From: Thermoflexus hugenholtzii JAD2
GTDB taxonomy: Bacteria > Chloroflexota > UBA11872 > UBA12225
Direction of reading: 5' to 3'
DNA length: 64,000 nt
Assembly: GCA_945865725.1 (NCBI GenBank)
Contig: CAMBEO010000002.1
Location: forward strand, 14,668-78,667
The notes beneath the pieces were generated by a model that was given only the letters and a program-made list of their open reading frames with translations, did no database searches and was not told the origin of the DNA. Shown here one piece after another: positions 15,646 through 58,384 of this stretch. How positions within the stretch are numbered: the first letter of the stretch is position 1; every line of letters starts with the position of its first letter. A program made the translations under genes and the position numbers.

Positions 15646-15823
15646 TGCGGCTAGCCCCTCACGCGGCGTGGCTGTCACGCCCCCCACGGGCGACCGCCCC
15701 CGCTTGGTCCCGGCGACTGGTCGTCGCCGCTGCCATGCTAACCGCAGCCGTTGCCCGGCGGACTGGGCCCGCCGGTGCCTCGCTGGCAGGGTCGTCTACG
15801 CTTGGCGCGCGCGTTTAGGACAA

Positions 15824-15946
15824 CCCCTTCCATCCGCCGCAAGCGCCCCGCGCTGCGGCGGGAGAGGGGAGACGGACCCCTTCCATCTGCCGCAAGCGCC
15901 CCGCGCTGCGGCGGGAGAGGGGAGACGGCAAGTCGGGCGCGTACCG
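15824..15946. repeat. two tandem module B palindromic repeats + 19-nt tail
   Basis: CCCCTTCCATC(C/T)GCCGCAAGCGCCCCGCGCTGCGGCGGGAGAGGGGAGACGG appears twice (15824-15876 and 15877-15927). The second copy is followed by GCAAGTCGGGCGCGTACCG (15928-15946). Confidence 0.95.
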
Positions 15947-18010: not shown

Positions 18011-18148
18011 TCCTTCCATCTGCCGCAAGCGCCCCGCGCTGCGGCGGGAGAGGGAAGTACCACCGCCACCCCATCCCCCGCCGGCGCGGGAGGAGGGAGA
18101 TGAATGTTCTCACCCCTAGCCCGTCTCCCGGCGGGAGAGGGGAAGTGG
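18011..18148. repeat. palindromic-repeat cluster: module B + two divergent core units
   Basis: 18011-18064 is TCCTTCCATCTGCCGCAAGCGCCCCGCGCTGCGGCGGGAGAGGGAAGTACCAC. 18067-18100 is CCACCCCATCCCCCGCCGGCGCGGGAGGAGGGAGA. 18111-18148 is CACCCCTAGCCCGTCTCCCGGCGGGAGAGGGGAAGTGG. Confidence 0.9.
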
Positions 18149-22001: not shown

Positions 22002-22060
22002 CGCCAGCTTCCTACCGGCGCTCCCGGTGCGACCAGCCTGCGGTCGGAGCGACACCAGGG

Positions 22061-22178
22061 CGGCGGAGCGGGCTGGAAGCCCGCGCACCCAGTTCGCCCG
22101 CCCGGTGGTCAGGTCGGCAGAGCGGGCGGGACGCCCGCGGTCCCGGGGCGGAGGAGCCGGCGGGACGCCCGCGCACCC
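22061..22178. repeat. three tandem imperfect hairpin units (GCGGGC-N5-GCCCGC type)
   Basis: Units at 22061-22090, 22113-22144 and 22148-22178. Hairpins are GCGGGC-TGGAA-GCCCGC (22068-22084), GCGGGC-GGGAC-GCCCGC (22122-22138) and GCGGG-ACG-CCCGC (22160-22172), each followed by GCACCC or GGTCCC. They lie between convergent genes. Confidence 0.75.
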
Positions 22179-22202
22179 GGTACGCGCGCAGGATGCAGCG
22201 CG

Positions 22203-28537: not shown

Positions 28538-28573
28538 GCGCGGCGCACCCCATCACGAAAGCGTGCGAGAACG

Positions 28574-29941
28574 ATGACCCAGGCGCCACCGCCGCAGACC
28601 CAGGTGCCACCACCGCAGGAGGCGCCGATCCAGCATGGAGCGGGCCAGCCGCTGCCGTGGGAACCGGTGCTGATGGCGGCCGTCGGACGACCCGGGGGGC
28701 ACCTCCTGGCCGACTACCTCTCGCGCGGCGGGTACGACGGGTTGAGGCGCGCCGTCGCCATGACCCCCGAGGACGTCATCAAGGTCGTCGGTGACAGCAA
28801 GCTGCTCGGCCGGGGCGGGGCCGGGTTCCCGACAGGTGTGAAGTGGGGCGGGACGCGCCGGAACCCGGGTCCACGCCACCTTGTCGTCAACGCGGACGAG
28901 TCGGAGCCTGGCACGTTCGGCAACCGGTATGCGATTGAGGCCGACCCGCACGGGCTGATCGAGGGCATGCTCATCTGCTGCTACGCGGTCGGCATCCGGC
29001 ACGCGTACATCTACATCCGGGGCGAGAACCTTGCGGGCGCCGAGAAGCTCGAGCTTGCGATCCAGGAGGCGTACGGCGCCGGCCTGCTTGGTACGCGGAT
29101 CCTCGGCACGGACGGCCTGGACGTCGACATCTCGGTGACCCGTGGAGCGGGGGCGTACGTGTGCGGCGAGGAAACGGCGCTCATGGAGAGCCTCGAGGGG
29201 CGCCGGGCGCAGCCGCGGATCCGTCCGCCGTTCCCGATCGAGGTCGGCGGCGGACTGTTTGGCCGACCAACCGTCGTGAACAACGTCGAGACCCTGATGT
29301 GCGTGCCGCATATCATGATCCGGGGCGCCGCGTGGTTCTCGTCGATCGGCGCGCCGGCGTGCCCCGGGCCAAAGCTCTACACGATCTCGGGCCACGTGAA
29401 CCGGCCCGGGGTGTACGAGCTGCCGATGGGCACGACCCTCTTCGACCTCATCTACAAGTACGCGGGCGGGATGCAGCGCAACCAGAAGGTCAAGGCGGTC
29501 AGCCCCGGCGCGCTCGCGTGCCAGCTGCTGCCCGGGACCGACCTGAACGTGCAGATGGACACGGCGACGCTGACGCGCCCGCCGCACTGGCACCCGCCGT
29601 TCGGTCCCGTCGGGTTCGGCGCGGGCGGGATCATCGTCTACGGGGAGGAGACGGACATCGTGCAAGTCGTCGCACGGGCGTCCGGGTTCTTCGCGAGGGA
29701 GAGTTGCGGCAAGTGCGTGCCCTGCCGCGAGGGCACCCACTGGATGGGCGACGTGCTGGGCCGGATCGCCCATGGCCACGGGCGGCCGCGCGACCTGCCG
29801 CTCCTCGAGGACGTCACCCGGAACATCGGCGGACGCAAGACGCTGTGCGCCCTCGGGGACTTCTCCGTGAACGCGGTCGCCTCGGCGCTGCGCCTGTTCC
29901 GGCCCGAGTTCGAGGCGTACGTCAATGGTGGGTCGCGGTGA
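28574..29941 (+). CDS. nuoF: NADH-quinone oxidoreductase subunit F
   Basis: GRGGAGFPTGVKW (FMN site), NADESEPGTF and ESCGKCVPCREG (N3 cluster). Confidence 0.96.
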   Translation: MTQAPPPQTQVPPPQEAPIQHGAGQPLPWEPVLMAAVGRPGGHLLADYLSRGGYDGLRRAVAMTPEDVIKVVGDSKLLGRGGAGFPTGVKWGGTRRNPGPRHLVVNADESEPGTFGNRYAIEADPHGLIEGMLICCYAVGIRHAYIYIRGENLAGAEKLELAIQEAYGAGLLGTRILGTDGLDVDISVTRGAGAYVCGEETALMESLEGRRAQPRIRPPFPIEVGGGLFGRPTVVNNVETLMCVPHIMIRGAAWFSSIGAPACPGPKLYTISGHVNRPGVYELPMGTTLFDLIYKYAGGMQRNQKVKAVSPGALACQLLPGTDLNVQMDTATLTRPPHWHPPFGPVGFGAGGIIVYGEETDIVQVVARASGFFARESCGKCVPCREGTHWMGDVLGRIAHGHGRPRDLPLLEDVTRNIGGRKTLCALGDFSVNAVASALRLFRPEFEAYVNGGSR

Positions 29942-29974
29942 GCGGCCAGTCACTCCCCACCCACCCCTGGGCGG

Positions 29975-30037
29975 CCCCCACCACCGTTATCCGCGTATGC
30001 GGTCCCTCCCCTGCTGCGGCGGGAGAGGGAAGCGAAC
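29975..30037. repeat. palindromic repeat, module C, in the nuoF-nuoG gap
   Basis: CCCCCACCACCGTTATCCGCGTATGCGGT-CCCTCCCCTGCTGCGGCGGGAGAGGGA-AGCGAAC (core 30004-30030). Confidence 0.9.
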
Positions 30038-30059
30038 CCCACGAAAGCGTGCGAGAACG

Positions 30060-32783
30060 ATGACCGGGGCACCGCCTCCAGCAACCGTTACCGTGACCGT
30101 CGACGGCAAGGACGTTGCCGTACCGCCGGGAACCTTGGCCGTCGAGGCGGCGCGGATGGCCGGCGTCGACGTGCCGGTGTTCTGCTATCACCCGAAGTTG
30201 TCGCTGGCCGGCGCGTGCCGTATGTGCATGTGTGAGATCGGCATGGCATCGCCGCCCGGGCAGCCCCCGCGCCCGCCGGGACTGATGACCGCGTGCACGA
30301 CCCGCGTCTCCAACGGGATGACGATCAACACCGAGGCGCCCGCCGCGCTGAAGGCGCGCGAGGGGGTGATCGAGTTCCTGCTCATCAACCATCCCCTCGA
30401 CTGCCCGGTGTGCGATGCCGGTGGCGAGTGCCCGCTGCAAGACAACAGCCACGCCTGGGGCCCCAAGGAAGGCCGCTTCACCGAGCAGAAGCGCCTGGCG
30501 CGCAAGGGCGCCGCGCTCTCCCCGCTCGTCGTCCTGGACCAGGAGCGGTGCATCGCCTGCTACCGCTGCACGCGGTTCATGGACGAGGTCCCGGGCGAGG
30601 CCGAGCTGGCGTTCTTCTCCCGGGGATTCGCCTCTGAATTGCGGACCGCCGGCGACGCGCCGATGAAGTCGCGGTTCCAGGGCAACATCATCGACCTGTG
30701 CCCGTGCGGGGCGTTGACCAGCGAGACGTACCGGTTCAAGGCGCGGCCGCAAGACCTTGACCATGCGGACAGCGTCTGCGGGCTGTGCCCCGTCGGGTGC
30801 AACGTGATCCTCGACACCCGGTCGAACCAGGTCACGCGGGTCCGTCCCCGGCAGAACGAGGCGGTCAACGAGATCTGGGTGTGCGACAAGGGGCGCTTCG
30901 CGCACCACTGGTCGTCGAGTCCCAACCGCCTCTCCGGCCCGTGGGTACGCGGGGCGGACGGCCTGCACCCGGCGACGTGGCGGCAGGCCTACCAGGAGGC
31001 GGCGCGTCGCCTCGCGGCCGTCAAGGCGGCGCACGGTGGCGGCGCCATCGGCGTGATCGGCGGCCGGAACCTGACCAACGAGGATGCCCATGCCCTCGCG
31101 CGGTTCGCCGCCGAGGTGCTCGAGACCCCGCACGTCGACTTCCGGGTCGGTGCGCAGGTTGCGGAGGCCAACCCCCTGTCCCCGTTCGGGCTGGACGCGT
31201 TCAACACCGGCCTCGACGCCGCCGAGAAGGCGGGCGCGATCCTCCTGGTCGGCACCGACGTCCACGACGAGGTGCCGGTGCAGTGGCTGCGCATCCGGAA
31301 GGGCGTGAAGGCGGGCGCGCGCCTGGTCGTGGCCGGGCCCCGGGCAACCGAGGCCGACCGCCTCGCGTTCCACCGCCTGCGCCATCGGCCCGGTTCGGAA
31401 CTTGCGCTGCTGGTGGGCATCCTTGCCGCCCTCGTCGAGTCGCCCCCGCTAGATGCCGATGGCGCGCCACGTGACCTGTCCGGCCTCGCCGCGGCAATCG
31501 GCGGGACAGGCGTCGACCAGGCCGCGGTGCACGCCGGCGTGGACGCCGTGACGATCCGCGCGGCGGCGGCGACGCTGGCCGGGGCGCGGGACCCGCTGGT
31601 GTACGTCGGGGCCAGGCTGGCGATCCGGCATGACGCGGGCGCGATCGGCATGGCGGTCGGCAACCTCGGCCGTGCCCTCGGGTACCCGGCGCGCGTGAAC
31701 TTCCTGGTCGAGGGCGCGAACGGGCGCGGCGCCGAGTGGGCCGGCCTCGTCCCGGGGCCCGGTGGCCTGCCGGCGGGACACATCATCGCGAAGGCCGCCG
31801 CGGGCGAGATCAAGGCCCTGTACGTGGTCGGCGAGAACCTCCTGGAGACGCATCCTGACGCCGCCCAGGCGCGCGAGGCGCTGGAACGCGCCGAGGTCGT
31901 CATCGTGCACGAGCTCTTCCCGACGGTGACGGCGCAGGGGGCGGACGTGGTGTTCGCGGCGACGGGCCTGATGGAGAAGGACGGCACGACCACGAGCGTC
32001 GAGGGGCGCCTGCAACGCATCTACGCGGCGGTGCACCCGCACGGATCCGACCGCGTGCCGGACTGGCGGATCCTGAGCGACCTTGCGGCGGCGATGGGCG
32101 CCGGCCTCGGGTACTCGGCCGCGTCCGAGGTCACCAAGGACCTGCTTGCGGACGTGCCGGCATACGCGTCGCTCGAGGGGAAGTTGCCCGGCAGTGCCGG
32201 GGTGCTCGTTCGCGCCGTGGCCGTGCCGGCGGCAGGTGGAGGAGGCTTCCTTACGGCCCCCTTCCATCTGCCGACAGCGCCCCGCGCCGCGGCGGGAGAG
32301 GGAAGCACCACCACCTCCCCCGGGCGGGCAAGGATGCCCGCGGACCAACGGGAGAGGGAAGCACCGCCGGCCGTACCTCCCTCTCCCGCCGCCGCGCTTG
32401 GGGCACTGGCGGCAGGTGGAGGGGCCCTCTTCCTGGTGGCAAGCCCCGAGATCGTCGGCCACGAGACCATCGTCGCCGAGACGCCCGAGCTTCTGTCGAC
32501 GGTGCCGGAGGCGTACGTGGAGGTGAACCGCGACGACGCGGCGCGCCTTGGGATCGTCGCCGGGGGACTGGTCGAGGTTCGGGGTCCCGCGGGTGCAGTC
32601 ACGCGGGTGGCCCGGGTGAACGGCCGTGTCCCGTCAGGCACCTGCTTCGCACCGGAGAACCTCGGCTCGCCCCGGATCAACGCCATCCTCCGTTGGTCGA
32701 CCGAGGTGCCCCTGGTCACGCTCCGGCCGGTGGTCGTCGAAGGCGCGGAGGCCACCGGGGCCGCCGTGGCAGGTGCCCGATGA
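30060..32783 (+). CDS. nuoG: NADH-quinone oxidoreductase subunit G (carries an in-frame repeat-derived insertion)
   Basis: 2Fe-2S CYHPKLSLAGACRMC, HPLDCPVCDAGGECPLQD, CIACYRCTRF and a molybdopterin-like domain. ATG is at 30060. Residues encoded by about 32228-32424 are repeat DNA read in frame. Confidence 0.93.
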   Translation: MTGAPPPATVTVTVDGKDVAVPPGTLAVEAARMAGVDVPVFCYHPKLSLAGACRMCMCEIGMASPPGQPPRPPGLMTACTTRVSNGMTINTEAPAALKAREGVIEFLLINHPLDCPVCDAGGECPLQDNSHAWGPKEGRFTEQKRLARKGAALSPLVVLDQERCIACYRCTRFMDEVPGEAELAFFSRGFASELRTAGDAPMKSRFQGNIIDLCPCGALTSETYRFKARPQDLDHADSVCGLCPVGCNVILDTRSNQVTRVRPRQNEAVNEIWVCDKGRFAHHWSSSPNRLSGPWVRGADGLHPATWRQAYQEAARRLAAVKAAHGGGAIGVIGGRNLTNEDAHALARFAAEVLETPHVDFRVGAQVAEANPLSPFGLDAFNTGLDAAEKAGAILLVGTDVHDEVPVQWLRIRKGVKAGARLVVAGPRATEADRLAFHRLRHRPGSELALLVGILAALVESPPLDADGAPRDLSGLAAAIGGTGVDQAAVHAGVDAVTIRAAAATLAGARDPLVYVGARLAIRHDAGAIGMAVGNLGRALGYPARVNFLVEGANGRGAEWAGLVPGPGGLPAGHIIAKAAAGEIKALYVVGENLLETHPDAAQAREALERAEVVIVHELFPTVTAQGADVVFAATGLMEKDGTTTSVEGRLQRIYAAVHPHGSDRVPDWRILSDLAAAMGAGLGYSAASEVTKDLLADVPAYASLEGKLPGSAGVLVRAVAVPAAGGGGFLTAPFHLPTAPRAAAGEGSTTTSPGRARMPADQREREAPPAVPPSPAAALGALAAGGGALFLVASPEIVGHETIVAETPELLSTVPEAYVEVNRDDAARLGIVAGGLVEVRGPAGAVTRVARVNGRVPSGTCFAPENLGSPRINAILRWSTEVPLVTLRPVVVEGAEATGAAVAGAR
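32228..32424. repeat. intragenic palindromic-repeat composite inside nuoG
   Basis: Module B(+) at 32257-32311, module D(reverse) at 32317-32349 plus a half core at 32350-32364, and module B(reverse) at 32371-32424. It is bracketed by the 15-bp direct repeat GGCGGCAGGTGGAGG (32228-32242 and 32408-32422), 180 bp apart. Confidence 0.9.
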
Positions 32784-33983: not shown

Positions 33984-34174
33984 ACCCCCACCATCGTTAT
34001 CCGAGTACTCGATCCCTCCCCCGCTGCGGCGGGAGAGGGAAGCACGACCCCCTGCCCCAATACGACCCCCACCCTCAATCCCTCCCCCGCTGCGGCGGGA
34101 GAGGGAAGCACCACCACCTGCCCCAATACGACCCCCACCCTCAGTCCCTCCCCCGCTGCGGCGGGAGAGGGAGG
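33984..34174. repeat. palindromic-repeat cluster: module C + two module A, in the nuoH-nuoI gap
   Basis: Cores at 34014-34040, 34080-34106 and 34146-34172. The last two units are a 66-bp tandem duplication, with CCTGCCCCAATACG at both 34051 and 34117. Confidence 0.95.
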
Positions 34175-34189
34175 CGAAAGGAAAACCTC

Positions 34190-37622: not shown

Positions 37623-37735
37623 GGTGGGGCATGGTCCGCGTCCTTCCCTCTCCCGCCGCAGCGTGGGGCGCTTGCGGCAGATGGAAGGGGGCCGTCTTGG
37701 GTGGGGCATGGTCCGCGGGCATCCTTGCCCGCTCC
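37623..37735. repeat. nested repeat: module B (reverse) inside module D, in the nuoL-nuoM gap
   Basis: The 18-bp direct repeat GGTGGGGCATGGTCCGCG (37623-37640 and 37700-37717) flanks a reverse module B (37641-37690). Module D continues as GGCATCCTTGCCCGC, with hairpin GCGGGCA-TCCT-TGCCCGC at 37715-37732. Confidence 0.9.
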
Positions 37736-39324: not shown

Positions 39325-39367
39325 CGGGGCGGGTTGGTCGGCGCCGGGTACGCGCCCGCCGTGGAAG

Positions 39368-40893: not shown

Positions 40894-41031
40894 CCCCCAC
40901 CATCGTTATCCGCGTACGCGATCCCTCCCCCGCTGCGGCGGGAGAGGGAAGCACTGTCGCCCTCACCACTACCCTTACCCCCACCCTCAGTCCCTCCCCC
41001 GCTGCGGCGGGAGAGGGAGGGAGTACGCCCC
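40894..41031. repeat. palindromic-repeat cluster: module C + module A, in the nuoN-argF gap
   Basis: Module C at 40894-40954 (core 40923-40949). Module A at 40977-41031 (core 40992-41018) is 55/55 identical to 42074-42128. Confidence 0.95.
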
Positions 41032-41058
41032 ATCATCCAGCCTGAGGAGGCTTCGGCC

Positions 41059-42048: not shown

Positions 42049-42128
42049 GCGGGGGGAGAGGGAAGCACGGGAGACCCCCACCCTCAGTCCCTCCCCCGCT
42101 GCGGCGGGAGAGGGAGGGAGTACGCCCC
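42049..42128. repeat. half core + module A downstream of argF
   Basis: 42049-42067 is a 3' half core, CGGGGGGAGAGGGAAGCAC. 42074-42128 is a full module A (core 42089-42115) identical to 40977-41031. Confidence 0.95.
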
Positions 42129-42204
42129 GTCGGCGATCGGTGCCGGGGTATGCTGGCCTGAGGGTCGCCATGCGTGACGGTGGCGCCGGGACGGGGTCTG
42201 CGAC

Positions 42205-44323: not shown

Positions 44324-44418
44324 CGGTACGGCCTGCACGGCCCGGTCGTTAGATGCCGGGAGGACCGGGTGCGGCTGGCTGGACGTCGGCGCTCCCGGTG
44401 CTGGGGTTTGGAGAATCC

Positions 44419-46122
44419 ATGGGAGACAGCGGAGCGGCGGGTGACGTGGGAGGGATGTCCGCGGACCGCGCGTACCGCTACCGCGTGCGCCGTGGCGTCG
44501 CGGAATGGTTCGACGGAGTGGCGGCGACGCGGCGGGAGTGGCGCGCGCGCAACGCGTACTACCACGGTGAGATCGCGCGGCTCGCGCGGCAGGTCATCCC
44601 GCCCGGCGCGCGCGTCCTGCTGCTCGGGTGCGCGACTGGCGACCTCCTCGCCTCGCTGCGCCCGTCTTTCGGGGTCGGTATCGACGTCAGTGGCGCGATG
44701 GTTCGCGAGGCGAATGCCCGGTGGGGACGTCCGGACGCAATCCCTGGCAGCACCCTCGCGTTCGTACAGGCCGACGCGCAAGAGTTGCCGTTCGCTTCGA
44801 GGTTCGACTTCATCGTCTGTTCCGACCTCCTCGGCTACCTCGAGGACATCCAGGCCATGCTGGTAGGCCTGCACGCGGTCTCGACGCCGCGGACGGCCAT
44901 CCTCGTCACGTCGTGGAACTGGGCGTGGCAACCGGCCCTGTGGCTTGCCGAACGGGTCGGCGCGAAGATGCCCGACCCGGGCCAGAACTGGTTGGGCCGG
45001 AACGACATCGAGAACCTGTTCGCCCTCTCCGACCTTGAACCGCGTGCGCGCGAGGCCGCGGTGCTGTCTCCGGTCAACCTCCCGGTCTTGGGTCCGCTCG
45101 TCAACCGGATCTTGATAAAGGTGCCTGCGCTGCAGCACTTGGCCCTCGTGCACGCATGGGTCGTGCGGCCCAAGGGGTTCCGGCCGGCACCGGAGGCCCT
45201 TTCGACGACGGTCCTCGTGCCGTGCCGGAACGAGGAGGGCAATATCCGCGCGGCGGTAGACCGCCTGCCCAAACTCGGGTCGCACGTGGAACTGATCTTC
45301 GTCGATGGCGCGTCGACGGACGGGACGCGGGCGGCGATCCTCGAGGAGATCGAGCGGTACCGGGGCGTGCGGGACATCAAGCTGCTCGACCAGGTTCCGG
45401 GGCCGGACAGTCGGCCTGACCCGAACTCGCCGTTCGCCGCGACGACCGGGTTCGTGAACGGCGGGTTGGTGGCGCCCGTTGCTCCCTTCCATCGGCCGCA
45501 ACACGCACCCCCAAACCCTGCGGCGGGAGAGGGAGGCACCATCGGCCCGGTGATCATGCTGAAGCTGGGCAAGGGCGACGCGGTACGCAAGGGCTTCGCC
45601 GCGGCGTCCGGGGACGTGCTGTTCATTCTTGATGCCGATTTGACGGTGCCCCCGGAGGACCTGCCGAAGTTCCTCGAACCGATCGCGGCGGGCCGGGCGG
45701 AGTTCGTGAACGGGACGCGCCTCGTTTACCCGCTCGAGGACGAGGCGATGGGTCCGATCAACTTCGTGGGAAACCGGTTCTTCAGCATCGTCTTCACGTG
45801 GCTGCTGGGACAGCCGATCAAGGACACCCTGTGCGGGACGAAGGTGCTGCGCCGATCGGACTACCGGATGCTGGCGGCGAACCGCGGGTACTTCGGGGAC
45901 TTCGACCCGTTCGGGGACTTCGACCTACTGTTCGGCGCGGCGAGGCTGGGCCTTCGAATCCTCGAGGTGCCAGTGCGGTACCGGCGACGGACGTCGGGCT
46001 ACTCCAAGGTGCTGGTCTTCAAGCACGGCATCCTGCTCCTGCAGATGAGCGTGATCGGGTTCCGGCGCCTCAAGCTGGCCCGCTGGCTCGGGCGTTCGGT
46101 GCCACCATCGGTCCCGGGATGA
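44419..46122 (+). CDS. SAM-dependent methyltransferase / family-2 glycosyltransferase fusion (carries an in-frame repeat)
   Basis: N-terminal class I methyltransferase region (ARVLLLGCATGDLLASL, DFIVCSDLLGYLEDI). C-terminal GT2 region (VLVPCRNEEGNI, FVDGASTDGT, GKGDAVRKGF, FILDADLTVPPEDL). ATG 44419 follows GGAGA. Repeat module B2 is read in frame at 45483-45540. Confidence 0.8.
   Translation: MGDSGAAGDVGGMSADRAYRYRVRRGVAEWFDGVAATRREWRARNAYYHGEIARLARQVIPPGARVLLLGCATGDLLASLRPSFGVGIDVSGAMVREANARWGRPDAIPGSTLAFVQADAQELPFASRFDFIVCSDLLGYLEDIQAMLVGLHAVSTPRTAILVTSWNWAWQPALWLAERVGAKMPDPGQNWLGRNDIENLFALSDLEPRAREAAVLSPVNLPVLGPLVNRILIKVPALQHLALVHAWVVRPKGFRPAPEALSTTVLVPCRNEEGNIRAAVDRLPKLGSHVELIFVDGASTDGTRAAILEEIERYRGVRDIKLLDQVPGPDSRPDPNSPFAATTGFVNGGLVAPVAPFHRPQHAPPNPAAGEGGTIGPVIMLKLGKGDAVRKGFAAASGDVLFILDADLTVPPEDLPKFLEPIAAGRAEFVNGTRLVYPLEDEAMGPINFVGNRFFSIVFTWLLGQPIKDTLCGTKVLRRSDYRMLAANRGYFGDFDPFGDFDLLFGAARLGLRILEVPVRYRRRTSGYSKVLVFKHGILLLQMSVIGFRRLKLARWLGRSVPPSVPG
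45483..45540. repeat. intragenic palindromic repeat (module B2) inside the GT2 domain
   Basis: TCCCTTCCATCGGCCGCAACACGCACCCCCAAACCCTGCGGCGGGAGAGGGAGGCACC, translated as APFHRPQHAPPNPAAGEGGT. It lies between the GT2 DxD-proximal strand and the GKGDA motif. Confidence 0.85.
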
Positions 46123-51693: not shown

Positions 51694-51811
51694 CGTGGCG
51701 AGGGGATCCTTGGCGCGGCGGGCGCGCGAGGTGGTGGCACCGTGCGCGGCACCAAGCATGACAACGGCGCGACGGGCAGTCGCGCCGCACGGTGGTCGTC
51801 GATGCGCCTGG

Positions 51812-51969
51812 CCCGCTTCCATCCGCCGCAAGCGCTCCACGTTGGGGCGGGAGAGGGGAGACGGGAGAAGGATGCCCCCACCCTCAGTCCCTCCCCCGCT
51901 GCGGCGGGAGAGGGAAGCACCACCCCCTCCCCTATCCACTCCCGCGCTGGGGCGGGAGTGGGAAGCACC
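51812..51969. repeat. palindromic-repeat cluster: module B + module A + compensated core variant
   Basis: Module B at 51812-51863. Module A at 51875-51922 (core 51889-51915). A variant hairpin, CCACTCCCGC (51936-51945) paired with GCGGGAGTGG (51952-61), forms a perfect 10-bp stem. Confidence 0.92.
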
Positions 51970-58313: not shown

Positions 58314-58384
58314 ACCCCCCTCTCCCGCTGGGCGGGGGAAGGGCAGGAGGTGGGGGTTGGTCCGCGGGCATCCCTGCCCGCCCT
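58314..58384. repeat. degenerate core + module D
   Basis: CCCCCCTCTCCCGCTGGGCGGGGGAAGGG is a reverse-type core, followed by GGAGGTGGGGGTTGGTCCGCGGGCATCCCTGCCCGCCC (module D, hairpin GCGGGCA-TCCC-TGCCCGC). Confidence 0.7.

Follow-up and report, generated by a model that had tools for sequence, protein, structure and literature searches.

A mosaic palindrome resembling REPIN and BIME elements, probably read through in frame in the NuoG linker of a Chloroflexota bacterium

Introduction

Rickettsia palindromic elements (RPE) are palindromic repeats of approximately 100 to 150 bp that are found in frame in unrelated housekeeping genes, where they are translated and occupy sites compatible with the fold of the protein (PMC10969869; PMC3733652). 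The REP, REPIN, and BIME elements, among them the REPs with GTAG or CGTC tags described by Di Nocera et al. (2013), form dense sets of intergenic hairpin units (PMC3733652; PMC3116915). REPs are also documented inside open reading frames, their clusters encoding 43 to 82 residues that lie mostly in linkers and loops (PMC3733652; PMC10969869). Among bacterial MITEs, in-frame copies are known for ERIC, QMITE1 of Coxiella, and the MITEs of Anabaena (PMC10969869; PMC5896051).

Here we describe a repeat-derived segment within nuoG in a 64-kb stretch of Chloroflexota DNA, the whole of which was analysed and is called the window below. We think it likely that the segment is a lineage-specific, REPIN/BIME-like mosaic palindrome that is read through in nuoG, probably as a neutral or selfish passenger that gives the protein a disordered loop.

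Results and Discussion

The nuoG gene and its linker

The gene and the codons in question are located as follows.

30060-32783, plus strand: nuoG coding sequence, 907 amino acids, with Pfam and PDB matches
32244-32423, plus strand: 60 extra codons, residues 729-788 of the 907-amino-acid NuoG

An initial annotation of this DNA had named the gene nuoG, and the name is secured by the Pfam architecture of the product (Fer2_4, NADH-G_4Fe-4S_3, Fer4_Nqo3, Molybdopterin, and Molydop_binding) and by its best PDB match, NuoG of M. smegmatis (8e9g_G, E 2.6e-95). An identical 907-amino-acid protein (P0121) is present in NCBI and ENA, whereas neither the 907- nor the 952-amino-acid form had an exact match in a contig index. 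An upstream extension of the reading frame to 29925 (952 amino acids) is possible, but only across an intergenic repeat unit.

The linker in which the insert lies varies in length and leads directly into the first strand of the C-terminal Molydop_binding domain. The repeat segment is absent from all 57 aligned NuoG homologues, among them relatives at 80% and 73% identity, and the alignment bears out the lineage specificity that had been proposed for these roughly 60 residues. The two closest relatives (L002 and L003) lack the segment, and their nuo loci contain no copy of the repeat family over 18 to 22 kb. The linker measures 30 to 56 residues in the homologues; taking 60 residues out of the window NuoG leaves 17, fewer than in any of the 57, so more must have happened here than one clean insertion into an undamaged linker. 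A homologue HMM does not separate the full protein (1192 bits) from the 180-bp-deleted form (1180 bits), the linker of the profile being long as well; linker length was the more telling measure. A search for close relatives with the C-terminal 267 residues returned four matches only, at 55 to 58% identity.

The extra 60 residues are of low complexity, with Ala, Pro, and Gly abundant (these three with Ser and Thr account for 68%). AlphaFold pLDDT exceeds 90 on both flanks but drops below 50 for residues 724-759 and is approximately 70 for 761-790; the model suggests a floppy 60-residue loop that is probably disordered, with both flanking domains still predicted to fold normally. No stop codon occurs in any of the three forward frames of the repeat segment, so that an open nuoG frame needs only a length divisible by three. 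The frame is indeed open throughout, and the peptide is the one quoted in the initial annotation.

A self-splicing intron or an intein was considered and rejected: a scan of the whole 64-kb window at Rfam gathering thresholds gave no match, group I and group II intron RNA families included, Pfam finds only NuoG domains, and the peptide is of low complexity. A CRISPR-like array was likewise rejected.

The segment is carried by one organism only, in two near-identical assemblies, one a 24.6-kb MEGAHIT contig and the other the 93-kb contig on which P0121 is encoded. The sequence comes from a metagenome-assembled genome, copies of the family are numerous and nearly identical, and a short related contig (L015) ends exactly in a repeat module, all of which would suit an assembly artefact in which repeat-derived reads were misjoined into nuoG. 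Such a misjoin is nevertheless very improbable: the second assembly (L001) carries the same segment and differs by 1 mismatch in 13.7 kb, at 39334, outside nuoG; on either side nuoG runs on contiguously in one frame; and the B units in nuoG carry private variants absent from other family copies.

Repeat modules within nuoG

Repeat-family DNA spans positions ~32253-32429 of nuoG, approximately 175 bp (about 172 to 178 bp), in the order B forward, D hairpin, half core, B reverse.

32253-32312, plus strand: B unit, forward (nhmmer 32255-32309, E 6.6e-15)
32322-32349, plus strand: D hairpin module, GGGCGGGCAAGGATGCCCGCGGACCAAC, matching on the opposite strand, with a predicted 7-bp stem
32349-32365, plus strand: half core, CGGGAGAGGGAAGCACC, matching the core of the A, B, and C units exactly
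32373-32429, minus strand: B unit, reverse (nhmmer 32424-32373, E 2.4e-7, envelope to 32429)

The nhmmer alignments and the module matches elsewhere in the window support the proposal of the initial annotation that this part of nuoG is built from modules of the intergenic type. The forward B unit has a tACGG head, a hairpin-forming body, and a CACCACC tail, would encode 20 residues, and is 92% identical to copies at 18012, 37643, and 15872. The D hairpin matches 37709-37732 and 58356-58383 (reverse complement) over 24 to 28 nt at 96 to 100%, and the half core has the 3' arm of a unit but lacks the 5' one. The reverse B unit has diverged further than the forward one and supplies the right arm of the palindrome. 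In the window, 14 copies of the core sequence GGGAGAGGGAAGCACC were counted where 0.05 would be expected.

The two B units pair end to end across 32255-32426 in both DNA and RNA folds, making the palindrome one long hairpin (RNA, -140.9 kcal/mol, z -6.3; DNA, -66.6 kcal/mol, z -6.2). One might expect so stable a hairpin to carry a cost within coding sequence, which is a point against its being tolerated there.

Base composition also sets the segment apart. GC3 is 0.705 in its 60 to 61 codons and 0.906 in the remainder of nuoG; sliding windows, which bear out the fall in third-position G/C remarked on earlier, place the segment as the lowest-GC3 60-codon window of the gene (windows that do not overlap the segment have a mean of 0.918, a standard deviation of 0.044, and a minimum of 0.783). 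GC2 is raised, at 0.77 versus 0.53. The segment is thus of noncoding base composition inside a strongly GC3-biased gene.

Could it be an ancestral linker whose likeness to the repeats is coincidental, or from which the repeats were derived? The linker is hypervariable in every homologue, and unrelated sequence at this site would be normal. Against this stand nhmmer matches (E of the order of 1e-15 and 1e-7) to a family with ~20 units, the palindromic structure, the lost codon-position GC pattern, and the fact that none of the 57 homologues shares the segment. Together these come close to refuting an ancestral origin, to which we attach almost no weight.

The repeat family in the window

Approximately 20 family units lie in the 64 kb, 17 of them intergenic and 3 coding, and the same modules recombine differently from place to place. 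Individual units also form hairpins (z -2.6 for B, -3.1 for A). Those in and near the nuo operon, apart from nuoG itself, are the following.

29975-30033, plus strand: C-type unit, nuoF-nuoG spacer
33985-34188, plus strand: array of three units (C, A, A) with a 66-nt period, nuoH-nuoI spacer
37623-37732, minus strand: D module and B unit, nuoL-nuoM spacer
40894-41034, plus strand: C and A units, nuoN-argF spacer
42049-42131, plus strand: half core and A unit, 3' of the ornithine carbamoyltransferase gene

The nuoH-nuoI spacer of L002 is only 22 nt long. When the nuo-operon spacers were aligned to those of L002 and L014, the relatives were found to be without the repeats, at a divergence too high for insertion boundaries or duplications to be placed. 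Of 10 B units, 4 have the motif GACG (CGTC) next to the 5' end; those in nuoG have TACG and GAGG instead. Searched for exactly, a 24-mer of the B consensus had no match in the JGI metagenome contigs, nor among the 185,579 species representatives of GTDB, a set that does not contain the source genome. No transposase domain was detected among the 20 window ORFs scanned, nor in the nuo-operon genes called on L001.

The presence of family units in five spacers in or beside the operon (nuoF-G, H-I, L-M, N-argF, and downstream of argF), together with the exceptional stability of the predicted nuoG hairpin, raises the question of whether the hairpin was recruited for a role at the RNA or DNA level, whether to stabilise or process the mRNA, to pause translation ahead of the last domain, or as a structure in the DNA, with the peptide as a by-product; roles of this type have been proposed for REP/BIME elements in operons. 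Work cited in PMC3733652 is described there as reporting effects of REP/BIME elements on attenuation and mRNA stability. We nonetheless judge such a role improbable: relatives at 73 to 80% identity do without these elements in the same operon, the Rfam scan gave no match, there is no conservation usable for covariation, and the parallel cases described below would fit chance survival in permissive loops.

Junctions and route of arrival

Two pairs of direct repeats accompany the palindrome.

32228-32242, plus strand: 5' 15-mer, GGCGGCAGGTGGAGG (peptide AAGGG), exact repeat, outside the palindrome
32408-32422, plus strand: 3' 15-mer, GGCGGCAGGTGGAGG, exact repeat, inside the reverse B unit
32247-32251, plus strand: TTCCT, left copy of a second, alternative pair of flanking direct repeats (5 bp), 3 nt ahead of the palindrome
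32430-32434, plus strand: TTCCT, right copy, 183 bp from the left copy, directly abutting the palindrome

The initial annotation had described the 15-mers as lying exactly 180 bp (60 codons) apart and bracketing the composite. The spacing is correct, and these are the only exact matches to the 15-mer in the 64-kb window (0.01 expected from shuffles); the bracketing is not, since the 3' copy lies within the reverse B unit. There it falls under the nhmmer alignment and, in register, shares 12 of its 15 bases with the B consensus; in the predicted hairpin it is paired to the left arm of the palindrome. At the 5' 15-mer nhmmer gave no match, and its likeness to B ends with the 15-mer itself; a relic of a third B unit was considered here.

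The 15-bp repeat had also been read as a target-site duplication. This would follow from MITE-type transposition, in which a 165-bp non-autonomous element entered at a 15-bp staggered cut and both copies of GGCGGCAGGTGGAGG are duplicated host sequence. The exactness, uniqueness, and 60-codon spacing of the pair suit such an event, as do three departures from the B consensus common to both copies, which point to sister copies, and an 18-nt direct repeat, CGCGGACCATGCCCCACC, that likewise flanks the B unit of the nuoL-nuoM spacer. The 5' 15-mer and the next 10 nt also appear, in frame, to resemble the host P-x-x-A-G-E-G-L codons of L002. However, the 3' copy is part of an arm of the element; removal of one 15-mer with the intervening DNA, 180 bp in all, leaves the 17-residue linker noted above; the TTCCT repeat offers another junction; and no transposase was detected among the 20 window ORFs scanned. 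A duplication of 15 bp is, moreover, long for a transposase. The reading of the 15-bp repeat as a target-site duplication is thus not secure, and we hold MITE-type transposition to be rather unlikely.

On its own the TTCCT repeat is not statistically significant, and from the sequence it is an equally possible junction to the 15-mer. The two models differ in the empty site that they predict: GTGCCGGCGGCAGGTGGAGGGGCCCTCTTCC and GCCGTGCCGGCGGCAGGTGGAGGGGCCCTCTTCCTGGTG under the 15-bp duplication, and GGTGGAGGAGGCTTCCTGGTGGCAAGCCCC under TTCCT, the counterpart to GTGCCGGCGGCAGGTGGAGGGGCCCTCTTCC being GGAGGAGGCTTCCTGGTGGCAAGC.

For the mosaic palindrome that we favour, two routes of arrival can be envisaged. 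It may have integrated beside host sequence that resembled its own end, or it may have arisen by recombination or conversion with another repeat copy; in either case part of the native linker would have been lost.

Parallel in-frame cases

A second in-frame unit of the family was found in the window.

45479-45540, plus strand: B-variant unit, in frame in a methyltransferase-GT2 (glycosyltransferase) gene (44353-46122), nhmmer E 6.7e-13

Its peptide would be APFHRPQHAPPNPAAGEGGT, in the same codon phase as the forward B unit of nuoG, and its GC3 is 0.57, compared with 0.87 in the remaining gene. The site is a hypervariable loop. Sequence of similar length but no relation fills it in homologues at 86 to 87% identity, and in a relative at 94% identity it contains a D-like hairpin. 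An unrelated, independent hairpin repeat is present in the same NuoG linker of another member of the Chloroflexota (P0010/L013). As judged from these sequences, the in-frame event in nuoG is not unique.

A broader and decidedly speculative idea, which we think has little chance of being right, is that this family of hairpin modules does not merely enter genes at random. Through homology-guided copying beside sequences that resemble its ends, it may repeatedly overwrite the hypervariable linkers and loops of proteins, perhaps translation-start regions as well, and leave junction duplications of 15 to 18 nt. Continued, lineage-specific remodelling of surface loops in housekeeping proteins, as in NuoG and GT2, would be the outcome. 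If the junction duplications do reflect a real mechanism, the family could help to explain how REP-like elements spread without a linked transposase.

A tolerated passenger

In the reading that we prefer, two inverted, GC-rich B hairpin repeats of ~55 bp stand around a small D hairpin and a half core, and the whole would be read through because the length that it adds is divisible by three (180 bp, or 183 bp with the alternative junction) and its GC-rich units are free of stops. The palindrome is most likely a tolerated selfish or neutral passenger, kept because the linker is permissive, and it is probably not an adaptation.

The biological surprise is modest, since in-frame palindromic insertions in protein loops are well documented. 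The locus extends the phenomenon of RPEs and intragenic REPs to an uncultured, GC-rich lineage of Chloroflexota and to a core respiratory subunit, and indicates that the inter-domain linker of NuoG can take at least 60 extra residues or have native ones replaced. It also calls for caution in annotation: in such genomes, what looks like an N-terminal extension or a low-complexity stretch of protein can in fact be repeat DNA.

Comparison with known systems

The comparison with RPEs made in the initial annotation is a fair analogy: the nuoG element is palindromic, in frame, and at a structurally permissive site, the NuoG linker, with a second copy in the GT2 loop. Rickettsia is AT-rich, whereas the host here is a Chloroflexota bacterium of 70% GC and the sequence is unrelated. 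Many RPEs are intragenic, whereas only 3 of the ~20 units here are coding; and an RPE is a single conserved unit, whereas this element is a mosaic of smaller modules with no conserved RPE peptide. Given such a host, membership in the RPE sequence families seems implausible, and the likeness would be one of mode of action only.

With MITEs the palindrome has in common its small size (~175 bp, below ~300 bp), imperfect inverted arms of ~50 bp, the lack of coding capacity, and in-frame intragenic copies. It differs in having no unambiguous target-site duplication and in a modular build whose modules also occur singly and in tandem arrays. We know of no parent insertion sequence with matching ends.

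In organization the palindrome resembles the REP-related elements. As in REPs, a short hairpin-forming unit is present in many copies that are mostly extragenic (17 of ~20), but the units here are ~50 to 55 nt with imperfect ~20-bp stems, compared with 20 to 40 nt for typical REPs, and the terminal tetranucleotide varies among the B units. REPIN-RAYT systems have a cognate RAYT (Y1 transposase) gene flanked by the repeats; no RAYT was found among the 20 ORFs scanned in the window. As in a REPIN, an inverted B doublet and its spacer form one long hairpin, and as in BIMEs, units of alternating orientation are separated by other short conserved motifs, with tandem clusters as well. In-frame insertions of REP, RPE, and MITE sequences in protein loops being already on record, the nuoG palindrome resembles those and does not represent a new kind of element.

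A Repeat Composite Read in Frame within nuoG

The window has a GC content of 70% and carries the housekeeping genes of a Chloroflexota-like bacterium: cmk, nusA, infB, rbfA, ribF, tyrS, fusA, proB, a VanW-like gene, the nuo operon, and genes for ornithine carbamoyltransferase, a DAC-domain protein, and cell-envelope glycosyltransferases. No transposase domain was found among the ORFs scanned in the window. The ORF at 29925-32783 is nuoG, encoding the Pfam domains Fer2_4, NADH-G_4Fe-4S_3, Fer4_Nqo3, Molybdopterin, and Molydop_binding; the best solved relative of its product is the Mycobacterium smegmatis NuoG (8e9g_G, E = 2.6e-95). The ATG at 30060 is its true start, and the resulting 907-aa product is identical to P0121 (NCBI, ENA). 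The 45 codons upstream (29925-30059) are read-through of a C-type repeat unit (29975-30033) in the nuoF-nuoG spacer, and the gene call from another assembly (P0001, 875 aa) begins at a later Met; start-site annotation near these repeats is unreliable.

A 40-nt direct repeat (28554-28593 and 30040-30079; 88% identity, with 26 nt exact, CACGAAAGCGTGCGAGAACGATGACC) covers the ATG and the opening codons of nuoF (28574) and of nuoG (30060), so that the two genes have a common translation-start region, each starting with Met-Thr before the reading frames diverge. The copy upstream of nuoG lies directly 3' of the C-type unit.

The 60 extra codons of nuoG are well supported as a lineage-specific composite of repeat modules that is read through in frame. 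As the initial annotation proposed, the segment is assembled from modules of the hairpin repeat family, recovered here by sequence matches and by nhmmer with B-unit profiles built from copies in the window itself:

30060-32783 (+), nuoG
32255-32309 (forward), B unit, E = 6.6e-15
32322-32349, D hairpin, matching 37709-37732 and 58356-58383 in reverse complement at 96 to 100% identity
32349-32365, half core (3' arm of a unit without its 5' arm)
32424-32373 (reverse), B unit, E = 2.4e-7

The D hairpin and half core sit between the two B units. The core GGGAGAGGGAAGCACC occurs 14 times in the window (0.05 expected). The single-stranded DNA of 32252-32429 is predicted to form a single long hairpin running from GGCCCC (32255) to GGGGCC (32426), at -66.6 kcal/mol (z = -6.2), and the RNA of 32220-32435 folds at -140.9 kcal/mol (z = -6.3). 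This makes the element an imperfect palindrome of approximately 172 to 178 bp, with two inverted B units around the D hairpin.

The suspected drop in third-position GC is borne out: GC3 is 0.705 in the extra codons versus 0.906 in the remainder of nuoG, making them the lowest 60-codon window of the gene, some 5 standard deviations under the others. GC2 rises from 0.53 to 0.77, and with the fall in GC3 this indicates that the codon-position pattern is lost in the segment. The reading frame is open throughout, as had been claimed, and indeed all three forward frames lack stops, so the sole requirement for read-through is a length divisible by three. An intron or intein reading of the segment was rejected; Rfam gave no matches in the window, and Pfam gave only NuoG domains.

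Linker Position and Lineage Specificity

The insertion was expected to be specific to this lineage, and none of the 57 aligned NuoG homologues contains it. The closest relatives, P0002 (80% identity, locus L002) and P0004 (73%, locus L003), have an unrelated linker of 31-32 residues at this position. Across the 18 to 22 kb surrounding the nuo operon their loci have no copies of the repeat family, and where the operon in the window has repeat-bearing spacers, both relatives have short ones. A second assembly, L001 (ENA ERZ27280224), contains the insert within a 13.7-kb match to the window that has a single mismatch, at 39334.

The segment lies in the linker that joins the Molybdopterin domain to the first strand of the C-terminal Molydop_binding domain; this linker measures 77 residues between two conserved anchors, compared with 30 to 56 (median 36) in homologues. 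Pro, Ala, Gly, Ser, and Thr account for 68% of the peptide encoded by the insert (residues 729-788). In an AlphaFold model computed from a 58-sequence alignment (mean pLDDT 81), the score drops below 50 across residues 724-759, is approximately 70 for 761-790, and exceeds 90 in both flanking domains. The repeat aside, the native linker (32200-32230) is about 13 residues shorter than those of the closest relatives (compare L002 9240-9330), possibly through deletion between two V-x-V-R motifs (VLVR...VDVR in P0002).

Organization of the Repeat Family

Profile searches identified ten B units and ten A/C units in the window. On their own, B, A, and D modules fold into small hairpins, and outside nuoG the modules occur singly, in other combinations, and in tandem arrays (periods of 57 to 69 nt). 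The arrays of two or three units, whose periods span approximately 48 to 69 nt, are:

1989-2103
15822-15927
33985-34188
40894-41034
51810-51969

Near-identity of adjacent units suggests local duplication as one route of array growth. Just downstream of the VanW-like gene, at 22055-22189, a 47-nt unit is present three times with a D-like hairpin (GAGCGGGCnGGAnGCCCGCG).

A search of 185,579 GTDB species representatives and of the JGI metagenome contigs with the exact 24-mer of the B consensus gave no match. The A-type core with its hairpin was found in single copies in nine contigs, for the most part from Chloroflexota MAGs. In a Chloroflexota MAG (DATGVV010000403.1, L008 400-500) another widespread hairpin type, TTCCCTCTCCCTCTGGGAGAGGGCTAGGGTGAGGGAA, adjoins the A-type core; related hairpins based on GGGAGAGGG are present singly across several phyla (nine matches among GTDB representatives).

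Junctions and Direct Repeats

The initial annotation also noted an exact 15-mer pair, which it took for a target-site or junction duplication. The pair itself is real: the window has just two copies of GGCGGCAGGTGGAGG, at 32228-32242 and 32408-32422, with a spacing of 180 bp (0.01 expected). Its reading as a target-site duplication is not established and is complicated by four observations. First, the 3' copy belongs to the reverse B unit, in register with the B alignment and with 12 of 15 consensus matches (compare 37645-37685), and pairs with the left arm of the palindrome in the predicted fold. Second, the 5' copy sits outside the palindrome yet is identical to the 3' copy, even at three positions that depart from the B consensus, so the two are sister copies. 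Third, once the 180 bp are removed, only 17 linker residues remain, fewer than in any of the 57 homologues, so the native linker has been partly lost or replaced. Fourth, a 5-bp repeat, TTCCT (32247-32251 and 32430-32434, at a distance of 183 bp), lies immediately against the palindrome and is an alternative junction, equally in frame.

The 5' copy with the next 10 nt (PAAGGGGFLT in frame) appears to resemble host sequence, PGQAGEGLVLVT of L002, at approximately 70% nucleotide identity. Candidate mechanisms are a staggered cut, integration beside a sequence like the element's own end followed by conversion, and recombination between repeat copies.

An 18-nt direct repeat (37623-37640 and 37700-37717; CGCGGACCATGCCCCACC on the minus strand) likewise flanks the B unit of the nuoL-nuoM spacer; it is a D-module tail (part of a D/A module) and parallels the nuoG 15-mer. 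Duplications of such length at junctions may therefore be typical of the hairpin repeat family.

Parallel Cases in Other Proteins

A second in-frame copy was found in a methyltransferase-GT2 fusion gene:

44353-46122 (+), methyltransferase-GT2 fusion gene
45479-45540, B-variant unit within it, E = 6.7e-13

The unit is read in the same codon phase as the forward B unit of nuoG, giving APFHRPQHAPPNPAAGEGGT, and its GC3 is 0.57 versus 0.87 in the remaining gene. The loop that holds it is missing from solved GT2 structures and hypervariable in homologues. Those at 86 to 87% identity have unrelated loop sequence of almost equal length, so the unit appears to be a replacement rather than an addition. 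The closest relative found (94% amino acid identity in the GT2 orthologue; Logan SRR13131472 contig, L015 1-45) has a D-like hairpin, CCGGGGCAAGGATGCCCCGG, in the same loop instead of the B unit, and the contig terminates within this hairpin. Both features suggest that modules turn over at a single site and that the repeat is multi-copy in that organism too.

The NuoG of a different Chloroflexota organism (P0010, 62% identity) has the longest linker among the homologues (56 aa), with CCCTCACCCCAACCCTCTCCCAGGGGGAGAGGGAG, translated ALTPTLSQGERE. Its gene (L013 3020-3110) has a hairpin repeat, CCCTCACCCCAACCCTCTCCC-AGGG-GGAGAGGGAG, followed approximately 40 nt downstream by GGGTGAGGG, the region being translated as ALTPTLSQGERESRPL. 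Here a related type of hairpin is involved, in an independent event.

Comparison with Known Systems

The phenomenon is already known in kind, in-frame insertions of MITEs, RPEs, and REPs having been documented. The main interest here lies in the host lineage, the target gene, and the unexplained junction repeats of 15 to 18 nt, and also in the repeated occupation of the NuoG linker and the GT2 loop by hairpin modules. In-frame fusions made by intragenic MITEs have been described as not unusual, with RPEs at the extreme (PMC10969869). Di Nocera et al. describe GTAG- and CGTC-tagged REPs wholly within ORFs, in clusters encoding 43 to 82 residues, propose that intragenic REPs may be tolerated through location in flexible linkers or loops, and report that RPEs carry the CGTC tag (PMC3733652). 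In the window the tetranucleotide tag is inconsistent (GACG in four of ten B units). The single, tandem, and mixed layout of the modules is that of known REPs, BIMEs, and REPINs, and the nuoG element has the structure of a REPIN- or BIME-like doublet. With its terminal inverted repeats and small size it also resembles a MITE, and it behaves like the in-frame MITE and RPE insertions and the intragenic REPs.
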